Origin: an archaeon
Lineage (GTDB): Archaea; Nanobdellota; Nanobdellia; SCGC-AAA011-G17; GW2011-AR17
Assembly (NCBI GenBank): GCA_043797705.1
Contig: JAZDPJ010000002.1
Coordinates: forward strand, 20,833 to 84,832
Length of the DNA: 64,000 bases
Direction of reading: 5' to 3'
Position 1 is the stretch's first letter; every line of letters starts with the position of its first letter. The notes below the pieces were generated by a model, which was not told the DNA's origin, ran no database searches, and saw only the letters and a list, made by a program, of their open reading frames with translations. Both the position numbers and the translations under genes were made by a program. Positions 10,790 to 49,137 of the stretch are shown piece by piece.

Positions 10790-11017
10790 TCAGTACTGCC
10801 TCAGAGAAGGAGACACACGCTTAACCTTATCCTTATCGCTCTTCATACTGACCTCAGTATCATAAGCCTTCCTCTGCTTAAACTCCTCGTACTTGCCCTT
10901 GTTCCAGAACTGCACAGGCCTATGGTACCCCACAACCCTGCTATAAACCTCACATGGAACAACTCTCTCGCCAGTTCTCGCCTCAACCTCTTCCTTAACA
11001 TTTTCTATTTCATACAT
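10790..11017 (-). CDS. nrdD: NrdD C-terminal glycyl-radical segment encoded in a +1 frame relative to nrdD
   Basis: EVYSRVVGYHRPVQFWNKGK is the RxxGY glycyl-radical motif of class III RNR. Its ATG overlaps the nrdD stop (GTA TGA A). Confidence 0.6.
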   Translation of the reverse strand: MYEIENVKEEVEARTGERVVPCEVYSRVVGYHRPVQFWNKGKYEEFKQRKAYDTEVSMKSDKDKVKRVSPSLRQY

Positions 11018-14000
11018 TCATATCACCCTTTATATCTCTCACAATACCATACATCTTAAGCTGCTCCTCTGTATGCTCATGAGGACACTCAAAATGTTCA
11101 CCCTTCACATAACCATGAACTGGACAGATACTGAAAGTAGGAGTCAAAGTGAAATAAGGCAGCTTGAAATTAGTAGCAATCTTCCTAACAAGTGCCTTGC
11201 ATGTCTGAATATCATCAATGCGCTCGCCAAGGAAGCCATGCAATACAGTACCACCAGTATACTTTGACTGAATCTCATCCTGCAGCTGCAACGCCTCAAA
11301 AATGTCATCAGTATAATTCACCGGAAGATGAGTCGAGTTCGTATAATAAGGCTCACCTTCGCCAGCAGTGATGATATCCTGGAACTTGCTCTTGTCAGCC
11401 TTCGCAAGACGATAAGTCGCACCCTCAGCAGGCGTGGCTTCCAAGTTATAGTTATTGCCTGTCTTCTTCTGATAATCAGCAATACGCTCAAGCATCGCAC
11501 CCATCACCCTAAGAGCAAACTTACGACCCTCCTCACTAGCGATACTCTTGCCGAACAGGTTCAAACAAGCTTCATTCATGCCAAGAATCCCGATGGTGTT
11601 AAAATGATTGGACCAATAACTACCTGAAGACTGCTTGACACCAGACAAGTAATGCTTAGCATAAGGATAAAGCCCAAATTCAGTGAACTTCTCAACAGAC
11701 TTCCTCTTAATCTCAAGGCTCAAACTAGCGAGATCCATAAGCCTGAACAACCTCTGCATGAACTCATCCTCATTCTCAGAAAGATAACCTATACGAGGAA
11801 GATTCAAAGTAACTACCCCGAGACTACCTGTCAGAGGATGCGCCCCAAAGACACCGCCCTTACGCCTGATCTCACGGTTGTCCAAACGAAGCCTGCAGCA
11901 CATCGACCTCGCATCATCAGGATCCATATCAGAATTCACAAAATTAGCGAAATAAGGCATGCCATACCGAGCAGTCATCTCCCAAATAATATCATACTCT
12001 GGATTATCCCAATCCAAATCCTTAGTCACATTATACGTGGGAATAGGAAAAGTGAAAATCCTCCCATTAGCATCTCCCGCCATCATCACCTCTGCGAATG
12101 CCCTGTTAATCATCTCCATCTCCTTCTGGAACTCGCCATACTTCTCAGGATTAGGCTTGCCTCCAATGATAACAGGCTTGTCAGCCAACGCCTTAGGACA
12201 CTTAAGATCCAAAGTAATATTTGAAAAAGGACACTGAAAACCTACTCGCGTAGGAACATTCATGTTGAACAGGAATTCCTGCATGGCTTGCTTGACTTCC
12301 TTGTAGGACAGATTGTCATAGCGAACGAATGGTGCGAGGAAAGTATCAAACCCTGAGAACGCCTGCGCCCCGGCACAATTACCACACCAACAAGCCTTTC
12401 CGTTCCTCCTAACATACAATGTATGATTAGGCACCTCCAAGCAATAGACATTCCCCGAATACCTTACTTTCTTAATATTAGACTTCGACAGCCTGAAGTA
12501 TTTAGTCCTTGAAACCCCGATGTCGTACCATCTAAATTTGCCTTTCTTCCTTTCATAGATATTAGCATTCCATCCCAGCTTCAAAACTACCTCCTGAAAA
12601 TCATCTGCCAACCTCCTGCTTTTCGTAGAATATTCCACATTTCCATTTGCAATATACCCGTCACCATTCATCATCCAATCAAATAAAATCTTTAATTGCC
12701 TAGAGGACAATGATTTAACATCATTAGGCAAAAACTTGTCTCCAGCCTTGCCAAACTTCTCCAGATAAGAAAACAATTGCTTATCACAGATAACAAATTC
12801 CAGTTTCTTGCTGTCCACAATCTTTTTATTGTAATTAAATGGCAATTTACTAAGAATGTTTTCAAAAGAATCAGCCACCTTACCCTTATTCTGGGTTATC
12901 CTAACCGCATACTCATAGAAAACCTTTTTTCTCCCTTCTCGTTTTCTTTCCCGCTTATACAAACAGCCTTCTGCTATCCAAAAGCCAAAAAAAGCTAACC
13001 AAACATCCATCGGTATCTTTTTAGGCCCTACTCTCTTTAGAACATACTTATCTCCAAAATGTTGATACTGCCTTATCTCAATGCCTGGCAGAACAAAATT
13101 GGCCTTATCCTTGGTTTTCCAGATAGAAACTTTTGGAATCCAGTTAGTATTAGGGTTAAACTCATTTGCCTTAACAAATTTTGTCGAATTATCTTTCTTG
13201 GCATGAAAATACTGCCAAACCAGCATACTATGCTCTGGAGTCACAAGAAGATCAAGTTTTTTTGTCCTAAAATTATACAGCTCCTGAGACCTTTTATATT
13301 TAAAAAATCTTAAGGGCTTATGCAAGCTTATAACCCCCCTATTGTTCCTAGTGAAGACTTTATCCACCTTCTTCACATCATAAAAATATTTCCAGCCCTC
13401 CTCAGTAAGGACTTCTGTGTCCTCTGAATAGCATTCCCCCTGCAAAGTATAAACAAAATTAGTCACCTGCCCCAAAGCAGCACGCAAGTGCTTCGGCGGA
13501 GCACTCTGAAGCTTGCCCGATACTCCCCCGAATCCCCGGATAAGAAGGTCCTGCAAGTCCCACCCACAGCAATAACTCGCAAGAATCTGCAAATCATGCA
13601 AATGGAAATCACCCTCAACATGCGCATCCCTAATCTCAGGAGGATACACCTTATGAAGCCAATAGTTCGAACTCACTATAGAAGAGATATGATTGTTCAG
13701 CCCCTGAAGAGAATAAGCCATGTTGCTGTTCTCCTTCACACGCCAATCAGTCTCACGCAAATAACCATCCATTATATCATTAGAGTTCACAAAAGACCTG
13801 AACTCCCTCAAACGCTTATGCTGCTCACGATAGATTATGAAAGCCTTAGCAGTCTTGGCATGACCCTCCTCAATAAGTATCTTCTCCACCGCATCCTGAA
13901 CATCCTCAACATTAGGCACAACCTTATCAGAGAAACCCTTGTTCTCCAGATAAGCAACAATCTTCCTTGTCAGCTCCTTCGCCTTGTCATAATCCCTTCC

Positions 14001-14114
14001 GCCAACAGACTTCGCAGCACGGAAGATAGCATCGCAAATCTTCTGAGGATTGAACAAAACAACCTCCTTGTTACGCTTCTTAACCTGAGATATTTCCGTA
14101 GATACCATAATCAC
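11010..14114 (-). CDS. nrdD: Anaerobic ribonucleoside-triphosphate reductase (class III) with N-terminal ATP-cone and one intein
   Basis: ATP-cone at the N-terminus, SMCCRLRLD thiyl-radical region, and a C-terminal zinc-ribbon half. 1034 aa, of which about 352 aa is an intein. GTG start. Confidence 0.85.
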   Translation of the reverse strand: MIMVSTEISQVKKRNKEVVLFNPQKICDAIFRAAKSVGGRDYDKAKELTRKIVAYLENKGFSDKVVPNVEDVQDAVEKILIEEGHAKTAKAFIIYREQHKRLREFRSFVNSNDIMDGYLRETDWRVKENSNMAYSLQGLNNHISSIVSSNYWLHKVYPPEIRDAHVEGDFHLHDLQILASYCCGWDLQDLLIRGFGGVSGKLQSAPPKHLRAALGQVTNFVYTLQGECYSEDTEVLTEEGWKYFYDVKKVDKVFTRNNRGVISLHKPLRFFKYKRSQELYNFRTKKLDLLVTPEHSMLVWQYFHAKKDNSTKFVKANEFNPNTNWIPKVSIWKTKDKANFVLPGIEIRQYQHFGDKYVLKRVGPKKIPMDVWLAFFGFWIAEGCLYKRERKREGRKKVFYEYAVRITQNKGKVADSFENILSKLPFNYNKKIVDSKKLEFVICDKQLFSYLEKFGKAGDKFLPNDVKSLSSRQLKILFDWMMNGDGYIANGNVEYSTKSRRLADDFQEVVLKLGWNANIYERKKGKFRWYDIGVSRTKYFRLSKSNIKKVRYSGNVYCLEVPNHTLYVRRNGKACWCGNCAGAQAFSGFDTFLAPFVRYDNLSYKEVKQAMQEFLFNMNVPTRVGFQCPFSNITLDLKCPKALADKPVIIGGKPNPEKYGEFQKEMEMINRAFAEVMMAGDANGRIFTFPIPTYNVTKDLDWDNPEYDIIWEMTARYGMPYFANFVNSDMDPDDARSMCCRLRLDNREIRRKGGVFGAHPLTGSLGVVTLNLPRIGYLSENEDEFMQRLFRLMDLASLSLEIKRKSVEKFTEFGLYPYAKHYLSGVKQSSGSYWSNHFNTIGILGMNEACLNLFGKSIASEEGRKFALRVMGAMLERIADYQKKTGNNYNLEATPAEGATYRLAKADKSKFQDIITAGEGEPYYTNSTHLPVNYTDDIFEALQLQDEIQSKYTGGTVLHGFLGERIDDIQTCKALVRKIATNFKLPYFTLTPTFSICPVHGYVKGEHFECPHEHTEEQLKMYGIVRDIKGDMNV
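12378..13433 (-). mobile_element. Intein with LAGLIDADG homing endonuclease domain inside nrdD (residues ~228-579)
   Basis: Block A CYSEDTEVLTEEG and block B LVTPEHSMLV. Two LAGLIDADG-type motifs (LAFFGFWIAEGC, LKILFDWMMNGDGY). C-terminal ...NGKACWCGN followed by Cys. More AT-rich than the flanking extein. The C-terminal boundary is approximate. Confidence 0.65.
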
Positions 14115-14145
14115 CGCTTTTTCCCCTTTTAGTCCCTTAAATCTT

Positions 14146-14169: not shown

Positions 14170-14616
14170 CTATTTCTTCAACAACTGCTTTACCTCATCC
14201 TGAAAAGAGGTTATGTCCGCAAATTCCCGATACACTGATGCGAAACGAATGTAAGCCACCTTATCAAGCCTCATCAGATGCTTCATGACCAGCTCGCCGA
14301 CAACCGCGCTCGGAACCTCATTTGACTTATAGTTCCTCAGCTTGGACTCAATCAGGCTTATCGTCTCCCCAATCTTCTCATCAGATATGCCCCTCTTCTC
14401 GCAAGCCCTAAACATGCCCTTCCTTATCTTCTCAGAATCGAAAATCTCCTTGGCACCGTTCTTCTTAACCACAAAAAGATTCAGAAGCTCAACCCGCTCA
14501 TATGTAGTGAACCTCTTCTCGCAGCCATTGCATTCCCTACGCCTGCGCGTCATCCCATTAGCATCCCGCTTATCCGTGACCTTTGTCTCTGATTTTTGGC
14601 AGAATGGACATATCAT
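14170..14616 (-). CDS. nrdR: NrdR-family transcriptional repressor (zinc ribbon plus ATP-cone)
   Basis: MICPFCQ...ECNGCEKRFTTYERVE zinc ribbon followed by an ATP-cone (VVKKNGAKEIFDSEKI...). Directly upstream of nrdD. Confidence 0.8.
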   Translation of the reverse strand: MICPFCQKSETKVTDKRDANGMTRRRRECNGCEKRFTTYERVELLNLFVVKKNGAKEIFDSEKIRKGMFRACEKRGISDEKIGETISLIESKLRNYKSNEVPSAVVGELVMKHLMRLDKVAYIRFASVYREFADITSFQDEVKQLLKK

Positions 14617-19101: not shown

Positions 19102-19782
19102 TTACTTCTTAACTTCCTCTTTCTTAACAGGGCCAGCAACTTTCTTAGCCTCTTCTTCAGACTTCTTAGCTGCTTCCTTAGCCTCTGTTGCTGCTTCCTG
19201 CTCAGCCTTTCTCTTCGCCGATACACTAGCGTAAGCCAACTGCTCCTTAGCAAGAACCTCTTTCAAAAGAGTTGCTTTCTCAGAAGAAACTTCAGTAACC
19301 TCATTCTTAATAAGACTATCATACTTACCAGAATCAACATCAGCCTCAATTTCCTTAGCAGGCTTACTCTCAACCATGACACCCATAGAATGACAAGAAC
19401 CAATAACAGACTTAACCGCTGACTTAAGATTATTAACAATCATCGCATCTTGCTTCATCAAAGCAATTTTGATAACCTGTTCAATAGCAATATTACCAAC
19501 CTTATTCTCATGAGCAGCACCAGAACCAGTATCAATACCTATCTCCTTCTTAATCAACTGCGAAACAGGAGGAGTACCAACAGTAATCTCAAACTCCTTA
19601 GTCTCAGTATCAACAACCAGCTTAACAGGAACCTTCATTCCTGCAAAAGACTTAGTCTTCTCATTTATCGCCGCAATAACTTCACCAATATTAATCTTCA
19701 ACGGCCCGAGAGCCGGACCCAATGGGGGAGCAGCTGTTGCCTTACCGCCTTCAACCATTACTTCTACCTTTTCTTTGCTCAT
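19102..19782 (-). CDS. rpl11: Ribosomal protein L11 with a Lys/Ala/Glu-rich C-terminal extension
   Basis: MVEGGKATAAPPLGPALGPLKINI... is the L11 N-terminal domain. The last ~60 aa are a low-complexity extension. Confidence 0.85.
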   Translation of the reverse strand: MSKEKVEVMVEGGKATAAPPLGPALGPLKINIGEVIAAINEKTKSFAGMKVPVKLVVDTETKEFEITVGTPPVSQLIKKEIGIDTGSGAAHENKVGNIAIEQVIKIALMKQDAMIVNNLKSAVKSVIGSCHSMGVMVESKPAKEIEADVDSGKYDSLIKNEVTEVSSEKATLLKEVLAKEQLAYASVSAKRKAEQEAATEAKEAAKKSEEEAKKVAGPVKKEEVKK

Positions 19783-20270
19783 TCTTCCTCCTCCTCCTCG
19801 TTTTCCCTTCTAATGACCTTAACAGAATCCAACTTCAAAGTAATCGGTATCGGAACAGCAGCCTCAAGAAGCTCGACAACAACCTCTTCTTTCTGCTCAT
19901 CAATCCTTGAAATCTTAGCTTTCTCCCTCTTGAAAGGGCCTGAAATAATCTCAACAATATCGTTCTTCTTAATGTTAACCTTAACTTTTACCTGCTCCAA
20001 CATTGACTCAATCTCTGCATACCGAACAGGTTTTGAAAGCAAATCCTTAGCATAAGGAACACCATAAAAAGCTTCCTCTGCGCTCTGCCTATCCTTAGCC
20101 TCAACAAAAATATAACCCCTCAAACCATGAGGCCTGACAACACTGTAAACTTCCAATTTTTTCTTGATAGCATTAGCTGTAATAAAATCCATAACCTGCT
20201 CTTCACGATTCGCGGTTGTCTTCAAAGCGAAAATCTGTGATGCTGGTGCCTGCTCTGTTTGTTCTTCCAT
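19779..20270 (-). CDS. spt5: Transcription elongation factor Spt5 (NusG homologue) with KOW domain and acidic tail
   Basis: NGN domain (YIFVEAKDRQ), KOW (KNDIVEIISGPFKREKAKISRI), and an EEEEE tail. In the conserved secE-spt5-rpl11 order. Confidence 0.8.
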   Translation of the reverse strand: MEEQTEQAPASQIFALKTTANREEQVMDFITANAIKKKLEVYSVVRPHGLRGYIFVEAKDRQSAEEAFYGVPYAKDLLSKPVRYAEIESMLEQVKVKVNIKKNDIVEIISGPFKREKAKISRIDEQKEEVVVELLEAAVPIPITLKLDSVKVIRRENEEEEEE

Positions 20271-20271
20271 T

Positions 20272-20463
20272 TTACCAACTAAGCAATTTTCCAAGCATGT
20301 TAATCACGAAACCAATTAACCCAATCAACACCATGCCTGCAGCGGTAACCTTAACTATAATCTTAAACTCCTCTTTTGAAGGTTTCTTTGTCAGTAAAAG
20401 CACTCTTTTACATTCCTTAACAAAGGATTTAGTTTTAATCCCAAGCTCCGCTAACTTACTCAT
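20272..20463 (-). CDS. secE: Preprotein translocase subunit SecE (Sec61 gamma)
   Basis: Single TM helix (VTAAGMVLIGLIGFVINMLG) in a ~63-aa protein in the conserved position. Confidence 0.7.
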   Translation of the reverse strand: MSKLAELGIKTKSFVKECKRVLLLTKKPSKEEFKIIVKVTAAGMVLIGLIGFVINMLGKLLSW

Positions 20464-20509
20464 ATTACAGTCCAAAAACACTAAATCATTTAAAAAGGTT
20501 GTGGTTCTA

Positions 20510-20788
20510 TTAAGAGAATAAACTTGTTAATACATATATGCCTGCCAAAATACCGGAAGCATGAAACATCTGTAAATCCAGCTTTCTTGTTATAACTTTA
20601 TTCCCAATTGAACTAAATTTTTTGAGTTCCCTGTTAAACACGTCTCTATCATCTAAAGTAGTAATATAATCAATATGCTCTTCCAGCTTTTTATCTGTTC
20701 GAGAAACATAATTGAAATACCCATAACCAAGGATGAAATCCTTTGCCTCAAGTTTGTAATAGTCAGTTTTCTGCTCTAAGTTTTCCAT
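20510..20788 (-). CDS. Hypothetical protein
   Basis: 92-aa ORF with a C-terminal TM segment. Confidence 0.3.
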   Translation of the reverse strand: MENLEQKTDYYKLEAKDFILGYGYFNYVSRTDKKLEEHIDYITTLDDRDVFNRELKKFSSIGNKVITRKLDLQMFHASGILAGIYVLTSLFS

Positions 20789-20791
20789 TTC

Positions 20792-21325
20792 TTATTCCCC
20801 TTTAATCCAACGCAACTCATACCCGCCAGTAGCCCTAGAGATATAACTGCCACCTGGTAATTCTAAACAATAAGCAATCTCTTCTTCTCCAAATTTTCTA
20901 AGAATACCTTCAGCTTCTTTTTGAGAAAAATCTAGTTGTATCATTGTAGGGTCCCATGCCCTTTTATGTCTTCCAAGATCTTCAGGAAGCAAACAATCTC
21001 TTAATTTAACTACTTCCTTGCCTTTAGCAGACCAACGAAGAGTCTCATACCAGCAGGCAGTAAACATCTCAGTTTCAAGCCTAACACGAGTCTTCTCCAA
21101 ACCTTCCGGACTAGGAGAACTGAAACTATCGCGGATATCATCCATCAGGATCTTCATGATGCCCTTGTCAGGCTCTACTGAAGAGATTTCCTCTTCAATC
21201 TCCTTAAGTGCACTCTCGTCAATAATATCTACCTGAGGTTCCATCGGCTTCCCTTCCAAAGCAGAGCGAACATAAGGCTCTATCCTTCTACACAAGCTAT
21301 CAAGCTGATCACTGAAATCTTCCAT
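20792..21325 (-). CDS. Hypothetical acidic protein
   Basis: 177-aa ORF with no motif recognised. Confidence 0.35.
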   Translation of the reverse strand: MEDFSDQLDSLCRRIEPYVRSALEGKPMEPQVDIIDESALKEIEEEISSVEPDKGIMKILMDDIRDSFSSPSPEGLEKTRVRLETEMFTACWYETLRWSAKGKEVVKLRDCLLPEDLGRHKRAWDPTMIQLDFSQKEAEGILRKFGEEEIAYCLELPGGSYISRATGGYELRWIKGE

Positions 21326-21374
21326 TAAAAAAGGGATTACTTCGAGGTTGCTTAAAAAGATTGTGGTAATTTAG

Positions 21375-21640
21375 TTTCCGACAAAAGAAACGCATTTAAA
21401 TGATTGGTGCTTTCTATATGTATTCATACTCGATAATGCGGGATTTCACAAAACAGATGTTGTAAAAAGCCTAATAGAAGAACAAAACAAATGGATTGCT
21501 CTTGAATACATCCCGCCATACTCACCAGAACTAAATCCGACTTAAACGAACTGGAAAGTCACAAAAAATGCTGTAACAAAAAATCACAGCATTTCAAAAC
21601 AATCGAATCAATGCAAGAGACACTGGAATCATTTTGGAAA
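21375..21640 (+). mobile_element. IS630/Tc1-mariner-family transposase gene remnant (C-terminal DDE fragment, interrupted by a stop)
   Basis: Translation ...FILDNAGFHKTDVVKSL...WIALEYIPPYSPELNPT*...VTKNAV reproduces the IS630 DDE tail (LDNAxxH ... LPPYSPELNPIE) but is truncated and interrupted by a stop. Confidence 0.55.
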
Positions 21641-21699
21641 GAACATATTTTTATGCAAGACTTTATGCATTATTCATGTCGTTAACTAGTTTAATGGTA

Positions 21700-22299
21700 T
21701 CAGCAGCTTGTGGAGAGTGTGAGGCCGTCCGGTATTTCTGCTTTACTTTTGAAGCACAGCAGGTTCTCTGGTTTTATCTTCTTCGCATATTTGCAGTCGG
21801 GCTTGTAGTAGACTTTGGAGTTTTTGCTTGCTACGTATGCGCATCCTTCTTTCGGATCTTCGCAGGACCATACTCCGAGGTTCTGGCTCTTGGCTATTGC
21901 TTCTGCTTCTTTCAGTTGGTCGTATCTTTTGGTGTCGTCCTTGTATTTGTCGTACACTTTTGCGTAGCCTTCTTTGACTATCTCCTCGTTTATCATCATG
22001 TCGTCTAGGTAGAGGTATCTGAGGTATCTTCCGTACGCTCCTTTGTCTGACTTGTCTCTTTCTGTGTATACTTCCTTGTTTAGTATGAGCTCTTTCAGTC
22101 GGTCTTTGGCTTCTTGGTAGTAGCATTCTCCTGTCTCAGGCGTGTTTATTCCGCTGAATCTTATTCTTTGTCCGTTGTCCAGGTCTAGTGTGTCTCCGTC
22201 TACTACTTTGGTTACTATGTATGGTCCTTCTTTTGTTATGTTACCTGTTGTGCATCCGCTGATTAAAACTATCAACAATAGGAATAGTAGTTTGTTCAT
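21700..22299 (-). CDS. Thermonuclease (staphylococcal-nuclease-like, SNc) lipoprotein
   Basis: Lipobox LISGCTTG, then VVDGDTLDLDNGQRIRFSGINTPE...YGRYLRYLYLD, typical of the SNase fold. Confidence 0.8.
   Translation of the reverse strand: MNKLLFLLLIVLISGCTTGNITKEGPYIVTKVVDGDTLDLDNGQRIRFSGINTPETGECYYQEAKDRLKELILNKEVYTERDKSDKGAYGRYLRYLYLDDMMINEEIVKEGYAKVYDKYKDDTKRYDQLKEAEAIAKSQNLGVWSCEDPKEGCAYVASKNSKVYYKPDCKYAKKIKPENLLCFKSKAEIPDGLTLSTSC
22131..22299. repeat. Direct repeat copy A (5' end of the nuclease gene); partner at 27075-27249
   Basis: About 60 bp are nearly identical (gtttattccgctgaatcttattctttg.ccgttgtccaggtct..tgtgtctccgtcta), followed by ~100 bp that have diverged but still align. Confidence 0.7.
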
Positions 22300-22405
22300 G
22301 TCTTTTGTTTTAGAAATTTGTTCTATATAACTTTAACTTAGTTTTTTTCGGAAGGTTTGCGGTATAGTGAACAATAATCTAAGAAAAATAGTTGGCACAT
22401 AATTC

Positions 22406-23239: not shown

Positions 23240-23371
23240 AGTTTTTAGTTTGTTTGTAATTATATAACTTTTTTGGAGTTGTAAGCGCTTTTTTATCGAA
23301 AAGTTTATAAGCGAGAACTATCGCAAAGTAGTAACAGTTTCTAGCTTTTGAAGCTAGAAGGGAGATAAAAA

Positions 23372-26995: not shown

Positions 26996-27074
26996 CTCTT
27001 TCCAAAATCTTATAGATAAAACCTGAGGTCTTGGGTTTTAATGGTTACAAAAATCGAGTAGTTCTTTACTTAAC

Positions 27075-27248
27075 TTAGACTATGTTGTTGTTTATTCCGC
27101 TGAATCTTATTCTTTGCCCGTTGTCCAGGTCTGCTGTGTCTCCGTCTATCACATAAGTTACGAGGTATGGCCCTTCCTTAGTGACATTACCTGTTGTGCA
27201 TCCGCTGAGGGATAGTACAAGCAATATTAGTGCTATTATTTTTTTCAT
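27075..27248 (-). pseudogene. Truncated duplicate of the thermonuclease 5' end (signal peptide plus first ~35 mature residues, then stop)
   Basis: Encodes MKKIIALILLVLSLSGCTTGNVTKEGPYLVTYVIDGDTADLDNGQRIRFSGINNNIV*. This parallels 21700-22299 up to ...RIRFSGIN, where the homology ends. Confidence 0.6.
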
Positions 27249-27334
27249 AGAAGCTGTTCTAGAATTTGTTTTTTATAAGTTGTACTTAGAAATTTTCGTA
27301 AGTTTTATAAAATACTGGTTTTTACTTTCGAGGT

Positions 27335-27532
27335 ATGACTGATTTAGAGTATAGGATATGCCCGAAGGATCATGCGGTTTGGTATTCTAGTGAGAATTAC
27401 GCGCAGGACTTTTCTGATGGGAATGTTGATGTTATGACTTTGCAGCCTATGTATGAGCCAGGTTTGTATTGCTCTCAGTGCGGCAGGGCTTATGGCATTA
27501 GCAAGCTGAAGGATCCTGAGATTAAAAAATAA
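27335..27532 (+). CDS. Hypothetical small zinc-ribbon-like protein
   Basis: 65 aa with C..H...CSQC. Confidence 0.3.
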   Translation: MTDLEYRICPKDHAVWYSSENYAQDFSDGNVDVMTLQPMYEPGLYCSQCGRAYGISKLKDPEIKK

Positions 27533-27942
27533 AAAAAAAAGAAGCTGTAAGGTAGGCTTGTGTTTACTTCTTTCCTAAGGTTCTTCTTTGGGAAGCTTTA
27601 CATTTCCTTTTGTTGGCAGTTTCAGCAATATTTGGCTGAAAAGAATGCCGATTGTTTCAAGGTCTACTATTTATCTCACCCCTATTATGTCAGTTCTTTT
27701 AGAAAGATTGGTTTTTCTTTCCAAGGTTTGACTTTTTTTTAGGCAGAACACATAACAAATAATCTTCAGCGGTTATCTGCTCCACCCCCTAATTCTTCTT
27801 TGAGAAAAATTAGTCCAGAGTATTATAGGGGTTAAGGGTATTTAAATATGGCTTTATTCAAAAGCTACTTTCAAAATTTATAAATATTTATAAATGCTAC
27901 TCATAGAAACCTTTAAAAGCTAGTTAAAAAGGGGGTTTATGG

Positions 27943-32287: not shown

Positions 32288-32974
32288 ATGCTGTCTGATT
32301 TGAAGGAAGATTTGGAAAAGCTTGCTAGTTCTGAGAAGGCTGAGGTTCTTTCTGGTTTTTTCAAGACTGGTAAGGGTCAGTATGCTGAGGGTGATAAGTT
32401 TATTGGGGTTATGGTTCCTTTTCAGAGGAGGATTGCTAAGAAGTACATGGACTTGCCTATGTTTGATTTGCAGGAGTTGATTTCGAGTGACATTCATGAG
32501 CACAGACTGACTGCTGTTTTTATTTTGATTGCGAAGTATGAAAAGACTTGTGATAGGTCTTTCGTTGATTTTTACTTGAAGAATCTGAAGTACATTAATA
32601 ATTGGGACTTGGTTGACCTTTCTGCTCCTAAGATATTGGGCCATTACCTGTTGGAAGACAAGAGGGATATTCTTTATAGGCTAGTTAAATCCAAAAGTTT
32701 GTGGGAGCGTCGTGTTGCTGTTCTTTCAACATTCGCTTTTATTAAGAAAGGGGATTTTGGAGATGCATTGAATATTTCTGAGTTGCTTCTGAAAGATCGG
32801 CATGATCTTATACACAAGGCTGTTGGGTGGATGTTGAGGGAGGTTGGCAAGAGGAATCAGGAAGTTGAGGAGCAGTTTCTAAATAAGTATTACAAGAGGA
32901 TGTCTCGTACTATGTTAAGGTATTCTATTGAGCGTTTTAGTTCTGAAAAGAAGCAGTTTTACATGAAAAAGTAG
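32288..32974 (+). CDS. DNA alkylation repair enzyme family (AlkC/AlkD-like HEAT-repeat glycosylase)
   Basis: Length and the ...WDLVDLSAPKILG...LWERRVAVLS...HKAVGWMLREVGKR blocks resemble the DNA_alkylation family. Confidence 0.6.
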   Translation: MLSDLKEDLEKLASSEKAEVLSGFFKTGKGQYAEGDKFIGVMVPFQRRIAKKYMDLPMFDLQELISSDIHEHRLTAVFILIAKYEKTCDRSFVDFYLKNLKYINNWDLVDLSAPKILGHYLLEDKRDILYRLVKSKSLWERRVAVLSTFAFIKKGDFGDALNISELLLKDRHDLIHKAVGWMLREVGKRNQEVEEQFLNKYYKRMSRTMLRYSIERFSSEKKQFYMKK

Positions 32975-42448: not shown

Positions 42449-43381
42449 TTATTGTTTCTTGATATTTTTGATGGCTTCTGTGAGTTCTTTATTTGTGTTT
42501 ATGCTTCCAATTTTTCTTCTTTTATTTGTTGCATTTTTCATGCCTTTGCAAAACCACATTGATTGTTGTTTGAGTTCTGTTAATGTTATTTCATATTTTT
42601 TTTGGAGATTGATAAATGTTTTTAGCTGTTCTTCTTTTTCTTTATCTGTGAGCTCTGGTATCTTCTTGTTGTTCTGTATTAGCTCTGCGCATTGTTTAAA
42701 GATATGGGGGTTTCCTATTGCTGCTCTTCCTATCATTATCATGTCGCATCCTGTTTCTTGAAGCATTCTTTTTGCGTCTTCTGCTGTCCAGATGTCTCCG
42801 TTTCCTATGATTGGTATGTTTGTTTTTTGCTTTAGTTTTCTTATTTTGTTCCAGTCTGCTTTTCCAGAGTATCTCTGTTCTTTTGTTCTTGCGTGTAGGG
42901 TTATTGCTGCGACTCCGGCGTCTTCTGCTGTTTTGCCTATTTTTAGGTAGTTTTGTGTTTTGTCATTCCAGCCGGATCTTATTTTGATTGTTATTGGTTT
43001 GTTTGTTGCGTTTGTTGCTGCGTTTATCATTTGTCTTATCTTGTCTGGGTGTTTTGAGAACCATGCGCCCATTTTTTGTTTTATTATGTTGTGTTCTGGG
43101 CATCCGAAGTTGAGATCTATTATGTTTGCGTGTCTTTCTATTTTTTTTATGGCTTCTTTTATTTGTTTTGGTTCTGATCCTATAAGTTGTATCGATAATG
43201 GTTTGTCTTCTTTTATGAATTTTGGTATTTTTCCTTGTATTATTGGGATTGCATATAGCATCTGGGTTGTTGCTAGTGCTGCTCCTTGTTGTCTGCATTG
43301 TATTCTAAATGCTGTGCAGTTTATTCCGTGCATGGGGGCGAGAATTAGCGGATTTTTTAGTTTTAGGGTTCCTATTTTCAT
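42449..43381 (-). CDS. tRNA-dihydrouridine synthase (Dus family, TIM barrel)
   Basis: LILAPMHGINCTAFR...IDLNFGCPEH...ITLHARTKEQRYSGKADW are Dus blocks. Confidence 0.75.
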   Translation of the reverse strand: MKIGTLKLKNPLILAPMHGINCTAFRIQCRQQGAALATTQMLYAIPIIQGKIPKFIKEDKPLSIQLIGSEPKQIKEAIKKIERHANIIDLNFGCPEHNIIKQKMGAWFSKHPDKIRQMINAATNATNKPITIKIRSGWNDKTQNYLKIGKTAEDAGVAAITLHARTKEQRYSGKADWNKIRKLKQKTNIPIIGNGDIWTAEDAKRMLQETGCDMIMIGRAAIGNPHIFKQCAELIQNNKKIPELTDKEKEEQLKTFINLQKKYEITLTELKQQSMWFCKGMKNATNKRRKIGSINTNKELTEAIKNIKKQ

Positions 43382-44925
43382 GTTGTTTTTCTCAAGGGAT
43401 GGGTTTGGGGGGTATAGATTTTATTTTTGAAGATTATTTCTTTTTGTTTCTTTTTTTCAGAGTAGGTGTATGGTACATATATTTTTTTCTTAGTTTTTGG
43501 GTCAAGTGATGTGTAGTACATGCAGGTTGATACTGTCATTGGTGTTGGTATGAATACTTGTACTGAGTCTGCGTTTTCTAGATGTTTTATTTGTTCTGCT
43601 AGTTCTTCAGCTTCTTTCATGCTTGACCCGGGGTGTGCTGTTATGAAGTAGAATGCAAGTTTTTTCCCTGTTGTTTTGAATTTTTTTATGAATTCTTTTA
43701 GGTTGCCTTGGTCTTTGTTCATTAGTTTTAGCACTTTTTTGTTTACATGTTCTGGCGCTATTTTGAGTGTTCCTGATATGTGGTGTTGTGCTATCTCTTT
43801 TATGTATTTGTCTGTTGTAAGTGAGTAGTGTATTCCGCTCCGTATATAGACTTTTTTTACGCCAGGTACTTTTCTTGCTTGTCTTAGCAGGTTTATCAGT
43901 CTTTCATTGCTTCTGTCGAGTTTGTTGCAGGTGATGCATTTGCCTTGGCATTTGTTGCAGTCCATGCCATACATGTTTGCTGATGGTCCTCCTAGGTCGT
44001 CTATGTTTCCTCTGAAGTGTTTTAGTTTGGTTATTTTTTTTATTTCTTTTAGGATTGATTCTTCGCTTCGGGATATTATTCTGTTTCCTTGTGTTAGTGT
44101 TAGTGAGCAGAAGTTGCATTCTCCTATGCATCCTCTGTGTGTTACTACGCTGAATTCGAATCCTCTTAGGTGTTTGCTGGGTATTTTTCTTGTGAATTCT
44201 AGTTCGTAGTATTCGTCTAGGTCTTTTGGTGTGTATTTTGGGATTTTGTATTGCAGTAGGTATCTGTTGTCTATTTTTTGTGCTAGGTTTTTATTGTTGC
44301 TTAGTTGGTTTTGCATATCGCAGAATTTTTCTTTGGATGTGCTGACTTCTTCATGGCTTGGTAGTTCTGTGAAGTTTTTGGGTAGGTTTTTGCTTGTTAT
44401 GCATGTTCCTTCTATTTCAGTTAGGTCTTCGTTGTTTTTGATTCTTTTTGCTATTTCGAGTATTTGTTTTTCTGCATTTCCGTATGCTAGTATGTCTGCT
44501 CTTGAGTCGAGTAGTATGGGCTTTCTTAGTTTGTTGTCCCAGTAGTCGTAGTGTGTGAATCTTCTTAGTGTTGCTTCTGTTCCTCCAATTACCATTTTTG
44601 TGTCTTTGTATTTTTGTCTTACCCAGTTGCTGTAGGTTATCACTGCTCTGTTTGGTACATTTTCATTGTAATCAAGGTTTTTGTCGTCTTTTCTTAGTCT
44701 TTTTTGTGGCGTGTAGTTTCTGATCATTGAGTCTATGCTTCCGGAGCTTATTGCGAAGAATAGTTTTGGTGTTCCTAGTTGTGTTATGTCTTCGGGTTTT
44801 TGCGGCATTTCTATTATGCCTATATTGTATCCGTTTTTTTCTAGCAGTCTTTTTAGTATTGCTGCTCCGCTTAGTGGATGGTCAAAGAATAATTCTCCTA
44901 GTAGGAATATTATGTCGTATTGCAT
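43378..44925 (-). CDS. Radical SAM protein, YgiQ/UPF0313-like
   Basis: N-terminal B12-like/Rossmann region, then HRGCIGECNFCSLT radical SAM motif. Overlaps the Dus gene by 4 nt. Confidence 0.6.
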   Translation of the reverse strand: MQYDIIFLLGELFFDHPLSGAAILKRLLEKNGYNIGIIEMPQKPEDITQLGTPKLFFAISSGSIDSMIRNYTPQKRLRKDDKNLDYNENVPNRAVITYSNWVRQKYKDTKMVIGGTEATLRRFTHYDYWDNKLRKPILLDSRADILAYGNAEKQILEIAKRIKNNEDLTEIEGTCITSKNLPKNFTELPSHEEVSTSKEKFCDMQNQLSNNKNLAQKIDNRYLLQYKIPKYTPKDLDEYYELEFTRKIPSKHLRGFEFSVVTHRGCIGECNFCSLTLTQGNRIISRSEESILKEIKKITKLKHFRGNIDDLGGPSANMYGMDCNKCQGKCITCNKLDRSNERLINLLRQARKVPGVKKVYIRSGIHYSLTTDKYIKEIAQHHISGTLKIAPEHVNKKVLKLMNKDQGNLKEFIKKFKTTGKKLAFYFITAHPGSSMKEAEELAEQIKHLENADSVQVFIPTPMTVSTCMYYTSLDPKTKKKIYVPYTYSEKKKQKEIIFKNKIYTPQTHPLRKTT

Positions 44926-48414: not shown

Positions 48415-48621
48415 CTATTTATTTTTGGTTTTTAACGGTTTCGTCTTCTTGCTTATTTCTATTGCTTCGCTTGTTATTGCTCTTAGTAGTATGTTGACTC
48501 CTGCGAGTATCCATATTTGCATTTTTTGGCTGAGTGGCAGTCCTAGTCCTGGGATTGCTATTGCTATTCCTGCTAGTATGTTTATCCAGAAGGTTTTTGA
48601 TTTGAATATTGTTTTTGTCAT
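48415..48621 (-). CDS. Small membrane protein (2 TM)
   Basis: 68-aa hydrophobic ORF. Confidence 0.3.
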   Translation of the reverse strand: MTKTIFKSKTFWINILAGIAIAIPGLGLPLSQKMQIWILAGVNILLRAITSEAIEISKKTKPLKTKNK

Positions 48622-48705
48622 GGTATTTTATGTGTATAAACAGGTATTTAAATTTGTTTATGTTCGGGAAATGTTTATATAGCAGCTAATTATATATTTT
48701 TTATT

Positions 48706-49137
48706 ATGAGAACTTTCAAGATTGTGACGGCGTCTGTGTTGTTCATTTTTGCTTCTTTGTTCATTTTTGGTTCTCAGGCTCCTATGACTGGTGCTGTTGT
48801 TGGTGTTGCTGGTAGCGGTTCTTTGTCTATTTTTGGTTTTGTTGTTGCTTTGGTTTCTGGTATTATTTTTGCTTCTGGTTTGGAGGAGAGGGTTAATGAT
48901 AATCCTGCTGCTAAACTTTTGAAGGGAGGTACTGTTTACACGAAGAGTAAGGAGTTGGTGAGCCTTGCTAGAGATTGCGGTTATACTCTTGAACCTGGGA
49001 GGAAGGAGGGCACTGTTGTTCTTAAGGAAGGTAAGATTATTGCTGTTATTCCAAATCATAAGTCTCTTAATAAATATACTGCTAAGGGTATTATGAAGGC
49101 ATATGCTAGTGGCGAGTCTTCTTTCAGGAAAAAATAG
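48706..49137 (+). CDS. Hypothetical membrane-anchored protein
   Basis: N-terminal TM pair with Gly-rich stretch, then a soluble C-terminal domain. Confidence 0.35.
   Translation: MRTFKIVTASVLFIFASLFIFGSQAPMTGAVVGVAGSGSLSIFGFVVALVSGIIFASGLEERVNDNPAAKLLKGGTVYTKSKELVSLARDCGYTLEPGRKEGTVVLKEGKIIAVIPNHKSLNKYTAKGIMKAYASGESSFRKK

Follow-up and report, generated by a model that had tools for sequence, protein, structure and literature searches.

In the 64-kb stretch of archaeal DNA analysed here (the window), the top strand is A+C-rich from 1 to 21.3 kb and G+T-rich from 21.7 to 64 kb, and the two arms meet at the remnant of an IS630-family transposase gene. This switch is probably the breakpoint of a recent inversion or rearrangement associated with an IS, shown up by an unusually strong replication-type skew. 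Evidence for such a breakpoint comes from the coincidence, at one spot, of an abrupt and orientation-independent change of sign, a break in conserved gene order and a mobile element. A preliminary description of this DNA had raised a replication origin, with an IS-mediated inversion and an assembly chimera as alternatives; with skew flip, synteny break and IS remnant all coinciding, an IS-associated event is the best supported of these.

Results

The left arm (1–21364) has an A+C-rich top strand and a G+T-rich minus strand, with a GC skew of −0.26 and an AT skew of +0.16 over positions 1–21325. The right arm (21700–64000) has a G+T-rich top strand, with corresponding values of +0.21 and −0.23. 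In sliding windows, GC skew ranges from about −0.1 to −0.37 as far as 21 kb and from +0.07 to +0.41 past 22 kb; the sign change on which the earlier account hinged is thus present at 21–22 kb. Left of 21 kb, each of the 21 one-kb windows has a G+T fraction between 0.34 and 0.46; right of 22 kb, the fraction exceeds 0.5 in 40 of 42. The base counts originally given for two short segments are exact (1–60, A30 C17 T8 G5; 43381–43440, T29 G17 A11 C3). Intergenic DNA shows the same signs as the genes (GC/AT skew −0.16/+0.20 on the left, +0.15/−0.20 on the right). Neither the 64-kb window nor the 5.9-kb contig that carries ftsZ shows a second reversal.

The asymmetry is most pronounced at four-fold degenerate sites, where the top strand has 62% A and 13% T on the left and 62% T and 9–16% A on the right. 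Top-strand values at these sites agree for genes of either orientation: GC4 and AT4 are −0.57 and +0.63 for plus-strand genes and −0.35 and +0.68 for minus-strand genes of the left arm, versus +0.47 and −0.58 (plus) and +0.47 and −0.75 (minus) in the right arm. This agreement bears out the earlier claim that the skew is a strand property of the replication type, to which gene orientation is irrelevant, and it led us to reject transcription as its driver. We also rejected an extrachromosomal or Borg-like replicon, as core chromosomal genes are present in each arm (ribosomal proteins, tRNAs, neighbours of the FtsZ cluster).

Leading strands have more G than C, which is regarded as a universal rule. 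In the window, 76% of coding bases in the left arm and 56% in the right arm lie on the G+T-rich strand, which fits a G+T-rich leading strand and suggests that this strand is indeed the leading one. Were the leading strand A+C-rich, contrary to all characterised cases, the junction would be a replication terminus. IS elements, islands and structural polymorphism often build up near termini, and the junction is such a spot. But under the G > C rule the polarity is opposite to that of a terminus, the distribution of coding bases suits the other assignment, and the position is not conserved in relatives (see below). We consider a terminus extremely improbable.

The reversal had been placed within ~400 bp (21.3–21.7 kb), at an IS630 remnant and with the polarity of an origin, and all three points hold. 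The maximum-likelihood change-point of G+T content is at 21647, with a 2-lnL support interval of 21611–21676 that falls inside the remnant (21365–21690), and the cumulative GC-skew minimum is at 21604. The last gene of left-arm type ends at 21325 and the first of right-arm type starts at 21700; both arms keep full-strength skew up to the junction itself. Scans for tRNAs and Rfam families gave no match at the junction.

The 335 bp that separate the arms consist, by protein-level homology, of an IS630-family (DDE_3) transposase pseudogene on the plus strand (21365–21690), and nothing else serves as spacer. The match covers positions 82–142 of the 146 in the Pfam DDE_3 profile (E = 3.9e-17), is interrupted by in-frame stops and frameshifts, and is 69–76% identical to intact metagenomic transposases of 170 aa; the homology extends back to about 21375. 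What is shared with the IS630/Tc1-mariner family is the C-terminal 60% of the DDE_3 domain; in contrast to members of that family, the remnant has stops and frameshifts and is without the N-terminal part and orfA. No inverted repeats flanking the remnant were found, nor could terminal inverted repeats or a TA duplication be identified. Judged from its sequence, the remnant is an inactive leftover element with only part of the DDE_3 domain. Its truncation at an internal position suggests that it was joined illegitimately or suffered a deletion later, rather than arising by clean recombination of two intact copies.

The transposase stop lies just 23 nt from the stop codon with which the first gene of the right arm ends. 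That gene encodes a secreted staphylococcal-nuclease-like protein (21700–22299, minus strand; PF00565, E = 3e-24) and already has right-arm composition (top-strand GC3 +0.42, AT3 −0.88). Beyond it, from 22.3 to 27.1 kb, GC content is lower and the skew weaker. This segment is bounded by the 5′ end of the nuclease gene and by a partial duplicate of that 5′ end and its upstream region (27089–27306, minus strand), which is 77% identical to 22143–22358.

Genes of the left arm lie mostly on the minus strand and include secE-spt5-L11-L37ae-prefoldin-SepF-ZPR1-Dph2-NrdR-NrdD and others, as read from Pfam lists for a 100%-identical contig (L004). All of those between 10 kb and 21.3 kb point away from the junction. 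Nearest to it are secE (20272–20463, minus strand; PF00584), a gene for a hypothetical 92-aa protein (20510–20788, minus strand) and a gene for a 177-aa protein (20792–21325, minus strand). A repeat scan found a promoter motif of secE, ACCACAACCTTTTTAA, at 20490–20505 on the minus strand, and a motif of the same repeat set, ACCACAATCTTTTTAA, at the promoter of the 177-aa gene (21352–21367). By BLAST end points, nucleotide homology to all relatives ends at about 20505–20513, at the secE promoter.

The source is a DPANN archaeon, and by FtsZ its closest named relatives are Woesearchaeota/Nanoarchaeota MAGs. For gene order and skew we compared 17.7 kb from the sister lineage (L041) and 15.2 kb from the closest relative (L044). 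Both keep the order FKBP-hyp-hyp-ftsZ-(hyp193)-secE-spt5-L11. Their top strands are uniformly T-rich whatever the gene orientation, and in neither is there a switch at the homologous place. At least 12 more distant relatives have ftsZ 0.3–2 kb upstream of spt5.

The gene between ftsZ and secE in L044, found by tblastn, encodes a 193-aa protein that matches the window's 177-aa protein over its full length (BLASTP E = 2e-36, 38% identity), and the two genes have the same orientation. A homologue search with the 177-aa protein had returned only itself, and the one match from a scan of genome contigs, in Lachnospiraceae, proved spurious. Given the homology to the L044 gene, the gene natively next upstream of secE is the 177-aa gene, with which the left arm truly ends, and it follows that synteny breaks exactly at the IS remnant. 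The adjacencies broken at 21365 are ftsZ|177-aa gene (L044) and ftsZ|secE (L041 and at least 12 others). The comparison with related genomes proposed earlier therefore finds ftsZ-(hyp)-secE-spt5-L11 contiguous and free of any switch in the two closest relatives.

In the window's lineage, which is rich in IS elements and heavily rearranged, ftsZ occupies a different site, a 2.2-kb block with IS200/605-type and DDE_Tnp_1 elements and a nucleotidyltransferase module at its flanks. A further loss of synteny with the sister lineage occurs beyond Dph2. Two contigs (L036 and L037), which stop at the same base, carry 1.2 kb of sequence downstream of ftsZ, and its polarity matches that of ftsZ. Intergenic regions downstream of ftsZ are too diverged to align for a base-level position of the break. 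The genes upstream of secE in L008 and L010 resembled none of the sequences compared. The ftsZ contigs end in a gene of 92 residues, which was considered as a counterpart of the window's 92-aa gene and rejected, as the two share no similarity.

The spot is structurally unstable at present. A near-identical MAG (GCA_043811045.1), with 3 mismatches in 10.9 kb of right arm and none in 13 kb of left arm, diverges from the window at the left edge of the IS remnant (21364/21365). In this MAG, 20518–21364 is replaced, an 847-bp segment of which the 92-aa gene is part, and the two visible ends of the replacement (contigs JBDRNM010000023.1 and JBDRNM010000043.1) are perfect inverted copies of 137–140 nt. 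A second structural allele thus exists at this place in a near-clonal population. At 20513, exactly where a JGI contig of 100% identity breaks off, a relative that is 88% identical carries a DDE_Tnp_1 IS. The 140-nt end sequence has no counterpart in the window or in viral contigs and no Pfam match; its alignment to intact transposases hints only weakly at derivation from IS630. In another assembly (L005), 28 of 29 differences cluster in 160 bp of L11, and only three others occur among the near-identical assemblies. Dispersed SNPs are so few that a mutation-spectrum test of arm equilibrium is infeasible.

A short-read MAG with a join at an element of a repeat family invites the suspicion that two unrelated contigs of one genome were fused head-to-head at the IS remnant. 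Contig ends do fall here: those of the second MAG lie no more than 140 nt past both boundaries, and that of the JGI contig coincides with one of them. Against this, three assemblies (the window, L002 and L003) cross the IS remnant unbroken, which indicates single-copy behaviour at k = 141. The ENA contig L003 runs from the nuclease gene through the remnant and 182 nt into the left arm, on the side of the 177-aa gene, and the ENA contig L040 joins the 3′ end of the 92-aa gene to the secE promoter. The same join thus appears in a different assembly, although the full independence of the samples is uncertain. Moreover, the 177-aa and 92-aa ORFs are intact through the stretch covered by the window alone. 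These data make the assembly chimera put forward in the preliminary description very unlikely.

Could the junction be a working origin? Under such a reading, a non-canonical bidirectional origin would lie at or beside it, perhaps brought to the secE arm by an inversion ending at the origin. The polarity fits, with G+T-rich strands diverging from the GC-skew minimum, and left-side genes from 10 kb on point away from the junction. An origin would also account for full skew in both arms with no need for a recent event, and the lack of a mirror switch downstream of ftsZ is what would be expected of an inversion that had one of its ends at the origin. In Ca. Forterrea, variation and transposons cluster near the origin (PMC5905446).

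Searches for the usual components of an archaeal origin were negative. Of 50 ORFs in the window scanned with Pfam, spread from 21 kb left to 42 kb right of the junction, none matched Orc1/Cdc6, and archaeal origins adjoin cdc6. The scan took in every ORF of ≥300 aa apart from rbcL and nrdD, together with the majority of the selected ORFs of ≥130 aa; its sole AAA protein is a 1098-aa AAA-Lon type. No cluster of ORB-like repeats was found at 19.5–24.5 kb or 26.95–27.96 kb, nor did a 12-mer scan of the whole window reveal one close to the switch, and no origin-like repeats were found at 23.2–23.6 kb or 26.95–27.96 kb. These scans substantiate the original remark that neither orc1/cdc6 nor ORB-like repeats are visible nearby. 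Between the promoter of the 177-aa gene (~21367) and the stop codon of the nuclease gene (21700) there is no intergenic DNA other than IS630-derived sequence, leaving no intergenic room for an origin. The nearest non-coding stretches (22300–22405, 23240–23371 and 26996–27942) all lie rightward of genes whose skew is already of the right-arm type, and none contains a cluster of repeats. Together with the absence of a switch at the homologous place in L041 and L044, these findings argue against an origin at the switch as first proposed, and we regard it as rather unlikely.

Discussion

On the reading we favour, an IS-associated breakpoint, replication-associated mutation would have pushed silent sites to an extreme strand asymmetry, with ~62% T at four-fold sites of the G+T-rich strand. 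A lineage-specific rearrangement associated with an IS would have broken ftsZ-(hyp)-secE-spt5-L11 just upstream of the 177-aa gene, and the secE arm would have been joined head-to-head to an unrelated arm via an IS630 copy, since truncated to a pseudogene. The arms would retain the skew gained in their former orientation, and the reversal would be a compositional relic of a recent event, not a site of diverging forks. The event was presumably an inversion, which is the simplest case, as opposed to a more complex rearrangement. It also seems to have been recent.

Three points weigh on the other side. Inversion breakpoints are expected to show origin-type polarity only half the time. With full skew in both arms right up to the junction, a rearrangement would have to be very recent relative to silent-site turnover. 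In addition, an inversion with just two breaks should leave a mirror-image switch beside ftsZ, and the polarity of the 1.2 kb downstream of ftsZ speaks against one. This last objection is weakened, as L036 and L037 stop at the same base, the DNA on either side of ftsZ is new, and there may have been several events. If there were several successive rearrangements, the true origin could lie a few kb to tens of kb away, with the switch displaced by a local inversion or insertion. The new neighbours on both sides of the ftsZ block, the further synteny break beyond Dph2 and the nuclease duplicate flanking the island are in keeping with such a history. It requires more events, though, and neither the window nor the ftsZ contig has a second reversal; we hold it to be improbable.

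GC-skew discontinuities arising from recent inversions, or from misassemblies between repeats, in prokaryotes have been reviewed and benchmarked (Chen et al. 2020, PMC7111523). The junction resembles known inversion breaks in its abrupt change of sign at a repeat or IS and in the accompanying break in gene order versus relatives. It differs in that the window shows one end only, the IS is truncated internally and the silent-site amplitude is far larger. Archaeal origins with ORB repeats beside orc1/cdc6 at a cumulative-skew minimum are known from Pyrococcus abyssi and Ca. Forterrea; in the latter, the sole described DPANN case, the origin adjoins cdc6 (PMC5905446). Their polarity is that of the window, and a bacterial-type skew with a single origin does occur in a DPANN archaeon. 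Unlike these origins, the junction has no cdc6 match among the scanned ORFs, no ORB repeats, no AT-rich spacer and no conserved position.

The junction itself is thus ordinary, an IS-scarred rearrangement breakpoint, and the magnitude of the skew is of more interest. Animal mitochondrial genomes show strong strand asymmetry. Strand-specific codon usage is described for a few bacteria, e.g. Borrelia, Lawsonia and Chlamydia (PMC2671203, PMC2089121). As in mitochondria and Borrelia-type bacteria, third codon positions in the window are set by the replication strand and not by the direction of transcription. The window differs from both in being archaeal and in having a T/A asymmetry (AT4 ~0.6–0.75) that exceeds its G/C asymmetry. 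Archaeal skews have been described as low in amplitude (PMC12999951), and the silent-site values seen here (AT4 ~±0.65, GC4 ~±0.45) go far beyond such descriptions, so the skew is, as was first noted, unusually strong for an archaeon.

A bolder and doubtful proposal is that the junction represents a relocated non-canonical origin with no adjacent initiator or ORB or, in a linked version, that replication or repair in this clade exposes one template strand. If one template strand were indeed exposed for long, silent sites would reach ~62% T, a mitochondria-like level, and every recent rearrangement would be readable by composition alone. Whatever its cause, a signal of this strength makes rearrangement history, replication direction and assembly errors legible from composition, and that cause (loss of repair or a peculiarity of the replisome in DPANN) becomes testable. 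The junction also illustrates how origin calls in MAG contigs can go wrong when they rest on origin-type polarity alone. The T/A component of the asymmetry is common to the window's lineage and its closest relatives.

Strand asymmetry is independent of gene orientation

In 2-kb windows, GC skew stays below zero along 1–21 kb and above zero over the remainder of the window past 22 kb, and AT skew is opposite in sign to GC skew over most of each arm. For the left arm as a whole (the A+C-rich side, 1 to ~21.3 kb), GC skew is −0.26 and AT skew +0.16; the corresponding values for the right arm (the G+T-rich side, ~21.7–64 kb) are +0.21 and −0.23. The G+T fraction is 0.34–0.46 in all 21 one-kb windows of the left arm and exceeds 0.5 in 40 of 42 on the right. 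Base counts given in the preliminary description for positions 1–60 and 43381–43440 are exact on recount.

To separate strand from gene orientation, we scored four-fold degenerate sites on the top strand, by arm and gene strand. In the left arm, GC4 and AT4 skews are −0.57 and +0.63 for plus-strand genes and −0.35 and +0.68 for minus-strand genes; in the right arm, they are +0.47 and −0.58 (plus) and +0.47 and −0.75 (minus). At these sites the top strand is ∼62% A and 13% T on the left, and ∼62% T and 9–16% A on the right. Intergenic DNA shows the same signs, arm by arm. The agreement between plus- and minus-strand genes bears out the original proposal that the asymmetry is a property of the strand. 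As in mitochondria and a few bacteria, the strand effect dominates codon third positions.

Archaeal skews are described as being of low amplitude (PMC12999951), and a bacterial skew pattern is found in only a minority of archaeal genomes (PMC7111523, PMC12999951). Against the former, the magnitude seen here is indeed unusual for an archaeon, as had been suspected. We found no description of such skew in Woesearchaeota/Nanoarchaeota-type DPANN in the open-access literature, which is absence of evidence rather than proof of novelty. The amplitude is the unusual feature; the junction itself is of modest interest.

Many long spurious ORFs run antisense to real genes throughout the window (e.g. 13488–14132, 21634–22008 and 19450–20055), because the extreme skew leaves one strand poor in stop codons, so that ORF lists drawn up naively for this organism mislead.

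The skew reverses at a truncated transposase gene

Judged by third positions, left-type genes extend up to 21325 and right-type genes begin at 21700. A two-segment likelihood model places the change-point at 21647 (support 21611–21676), and the cumulative GC-skew minimum is at 21604. Sliding windows and change-point thus confirm the sign change described at ∼21.3–21.7 kb.

On the left, minus-strand genes for proteins of 177 aa (21325–20792) and 92 aa (20788–20510) are followed, toward lower coordinates, by secE, spt5, L11, tRNA-Pro, L37ae, prefoldin, SepF, ZPR1, Dph2, NrdR and an intein-containing NrdD. The first right-arm gene encodes a secreted staphylococcal-type nuclease (21700–22299, minus); beyond it lie an aldo/keto reductase and then plus-strand radical SAM/SPASM, kinase, EEP nuclease, ThiF and ThiI genes. 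Between the arms, at 21365–21690 on the plus strand, is the C-terminal part of an IS630-family transposase gene. This remnant, noted previously, is real: it matches DDE_3 profile positions 82–142 of 146 (E = 3.9e-17). It carries an in-frame stop and frameshifts; its closest intact relatives, 170-aa transposases, are 69–76% identical, with homology traceable back to ∼21375. To its left are only ∼40 nt, which contain the promoter motif of the 177-aa gene, and to its right the transposase and nuclease stop codons are 23 nt apart. The junction has no non-IS spacer able to house an origin.

A 16-nt motif, ACCACAAYCTTTTTAA (minus strand), occurs at 20490–20505 and 21352–21367; the start codons, of secE and of the 177-aa gene respectively, follow ∼30–45 nt downstream. 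It is probably a shared BRE/TATA promoter.

Gene order and skew in relatives

A metagenome scan with Spt5 yielded 29 related loci. In all 29, nucleotide homology to the window ends at ∼20505–20513, the upstream end of the secE promoter, and in at least 12 relatives ftsZ lies 0.3–2 kb upstream of spt5. A sister lineage (L041, 17.7 kb) has the order FKBP-hyp-hyp-ftsZ-secE-spt5-L11-L37ae-prefoldin-SepF-ZPR1-Dph2. The closest relative found (L044, GCA_017973895.1; 79% identical to the window's lineage in secE–L11 and 83% in ftsZ) has ftsZ, a 193-aa gene and then secE-spt5-L11. This 193-aa protein is a full-length homologue of the 177-aa protein (38% identity, E = 2e-36), which is thus no orphan, and the two genes have identical position and orientation relative to secE. 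It follows that the left arm is the native home of the 847-bp segment 20518–21364, which holds the genes for the 92-aa and 177-aa proteins. Upstream of it, the ancestral neighbour was ftsZ; gene order is broken where the IS remnant begins on its left side, the point at which composition reverses.

Throughout both the L041 and the L044 contig, third positions read on the top strand are rich in T whichever strand the gene is on (AT3 −0.2 to −0.95 for nearly all genes), and no skew reversal occurs along either. Silent-site skew is only weak in more distant relatives. Four-fold sites in L041 and L044 give an orientation-independent AT4 of −0.4 to −0.7 with GC4 about 0, unlike the window's lineage, which has both T/A and G/C asymmetry. 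Strong T/A asymmetry is thus a shared trait of this small clade, to which the window's lineage adds the strong G/C component; the two seem to have arisen separately.

In an 88%-identical relative (L033; identity for secE), insertion of a DDE_Tnp_1 transposase gene (L033 positions 80–1234) at this boundary on the upstream side of the secE promoter marks it as a recurrent insertion spot.

Structural alleles at the junction

The window, part of a 95.8-kb contig, was compared with another four assemblies that represent essentially one clone with it. In the second MAG (GCA_043811045.1), contig 43 matches window positions 32299 down to 21365 with three mismatches, continues into 137 nt of differing sequence X (contig positions 10936–11072) and ends. 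Contig 23 starts with X in exact reverse complement (140 nt, contig positions 1–140), rejoins the window at ∼20511–20517 and is then 100% identical over 13 kb. The second MAG thus lacks 20518–21364 here and has instead a sequence bounded by inverted X. Its X ends are perfect inverted copies of 137–140 nt (GGGGTTGGGACAAAATTAATC...), at which both contigs stop. The two versions split within the second copy of the promoter motif and have 3 nt (ACC/GGT) in common. Since the 847-bp segment is native, the second-MAG allele is the derived one; we interpret it as insertion of a long-inverted-end element at the IS edge with deletion of the adjacent 847 bp, although the X ends may be two distant inverted copies.

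ENA assembly ERZ27247128 contains the window's join, with nuclease, IS remnant and 182 nt of left arm on one contig (L003) and the join between the 92-aa gene and the secE promoter on another (L040). A 100%-identical contig from JGI sample 3300014656 stops exactly at 20513. The assemblies show almost no differences beyond a 160-bp tract in L11, so the population is close to clonal and has two or more structural alleles at the junction.

An assembly chimera was one of the earlier suggestions. However, the IS remnant is traversed without branching in three assemblies and the join recurs in a second assembly (the underlying samples perhaps not fully independent), making a repeat-induced misassembly very improbable.

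In a 9.1-kb comparison with another ENA contig (L005), 28 of 29 differences fall inside 19219–19377, the L11 C-terminal extension, which encodes a lysine/glutamate/alanine-rich tail. This tract is a hypervariable or recombined patch on an otherwise clonal background.

Rearrangement breakpoint versus replication origin

Composition reverses at precisely the point where synteny breaks, and a truncated IS bridges that break; IS elements and rearrangements abound in the lineage, and one clone still shows structural change at this spot. Of the explanations offered initially, the strongest is a breakpoint of an IS-associated inversion or rearrangement, and we consider it probable that the junction is a recent breakpoint of this kind. 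Rearrangement would have joined two arms of opposite skew via the truncated IS. This reading has a cost, in that the event has to be young on the scale of silent-site turnover and no partner junction was found. In prokaryotic genomes, a skew discontinuity at a repeat is a recognised mark of inversion or misassembly (PMC7111523), and this junction adds an example.

The ftsZ gene of the window's lineage (protein P0143) is present in the same ENA and JGI samples as the clone, and its skew (GC3 +0.67, AT3 −0.88) is as extreme as the window's. It is located in a 2.2-kb hyp-hyp-ftsZ block, out of its ancestral context (L036, 1–5876; L037, 1–4203), with IS200/605-type (Y1_Tnp) and DDE_Tnp_1 transposases upstream and a small ORF, a nucleotidyltransferase and a truncated minus-strand gene downstream. 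L036 and L037, from two independent assemblies, both stop at one base inside the minus-strand gene, as though a further repeat or polymorphic junction lay there. No mirror reversal occurs within 1.2 kb of ftsZ, all L036/L037 DNA being in its polarity. This is the chief point at odds with a single two-break inversion, whereas an inversion that ended at the origin on one side, or a succession of events, would account for it. Several events clearly occurred, as ftsZ has new neighbours on both sides.

The absence of a mirror switch at ftsZ also speaks for a non-canonical origin at the junction, as do the polarity of the switch, the divergence of left-side genes from it and the full skew in both arms. 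Yet the reversal is not conserved in the closest relatives, and the sole spacer is an IS pseudogene. In line with the preliminary description, no Orc1/Cdc6 was found among 50 window ORFs scanned with Pfam (including all those ≥300 aa except rbcL and nrdD, identified independently, and most chosen ORFs ≥130 aa). Repeat searches covering 19.5–24.5 kb and three candidate non-coding stretches, together with a scan of the whole window for clustered 12-mers, gave no ORB-like elements near the switch. Nor did scans find a tRNA or Rfam family at the junction. The single DPANN archaeon for which bacterial-type skew has been described has its minimum beside cdc6 (PMC5905446), in contrast to the minimum here. 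These data argue against the origin initially proposed, which we regard as unlikely. A more complex history with an origin nearby is somewhat less likely again, and a terminus with inverted polarity is the least credible reading of all.

Five same-strand copies of the 12-mer ATTTTTGGTTCT, counted with up to one mismatch, lie within 450 bp (48421–48865) across two small genes, of which one gives a weak HicA-like hit.

Other features of the window

A partial direct duplicate (27089–27306 versus 22143–22358, 77% identity) comprises the 5' end of the nuclease gene and its upstream region. The copies bracket a stretch of lower GC (0.32–0.34) and weaker silent-site skew, carrying the aldo/keto reductase, radical SAM/SPASM, kinase and EEP nuclease genes, which looks like an inserted island. 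In the left arm, NrdD (anaerobic ribonucleotide reductase, 11010–14114) contains a LAGLIDADG intein. The preceding gene (14170–14616), with a Zn ribbon and ATP-cone, is named NrdR by NCBI, a regulator usually considered bacterial.
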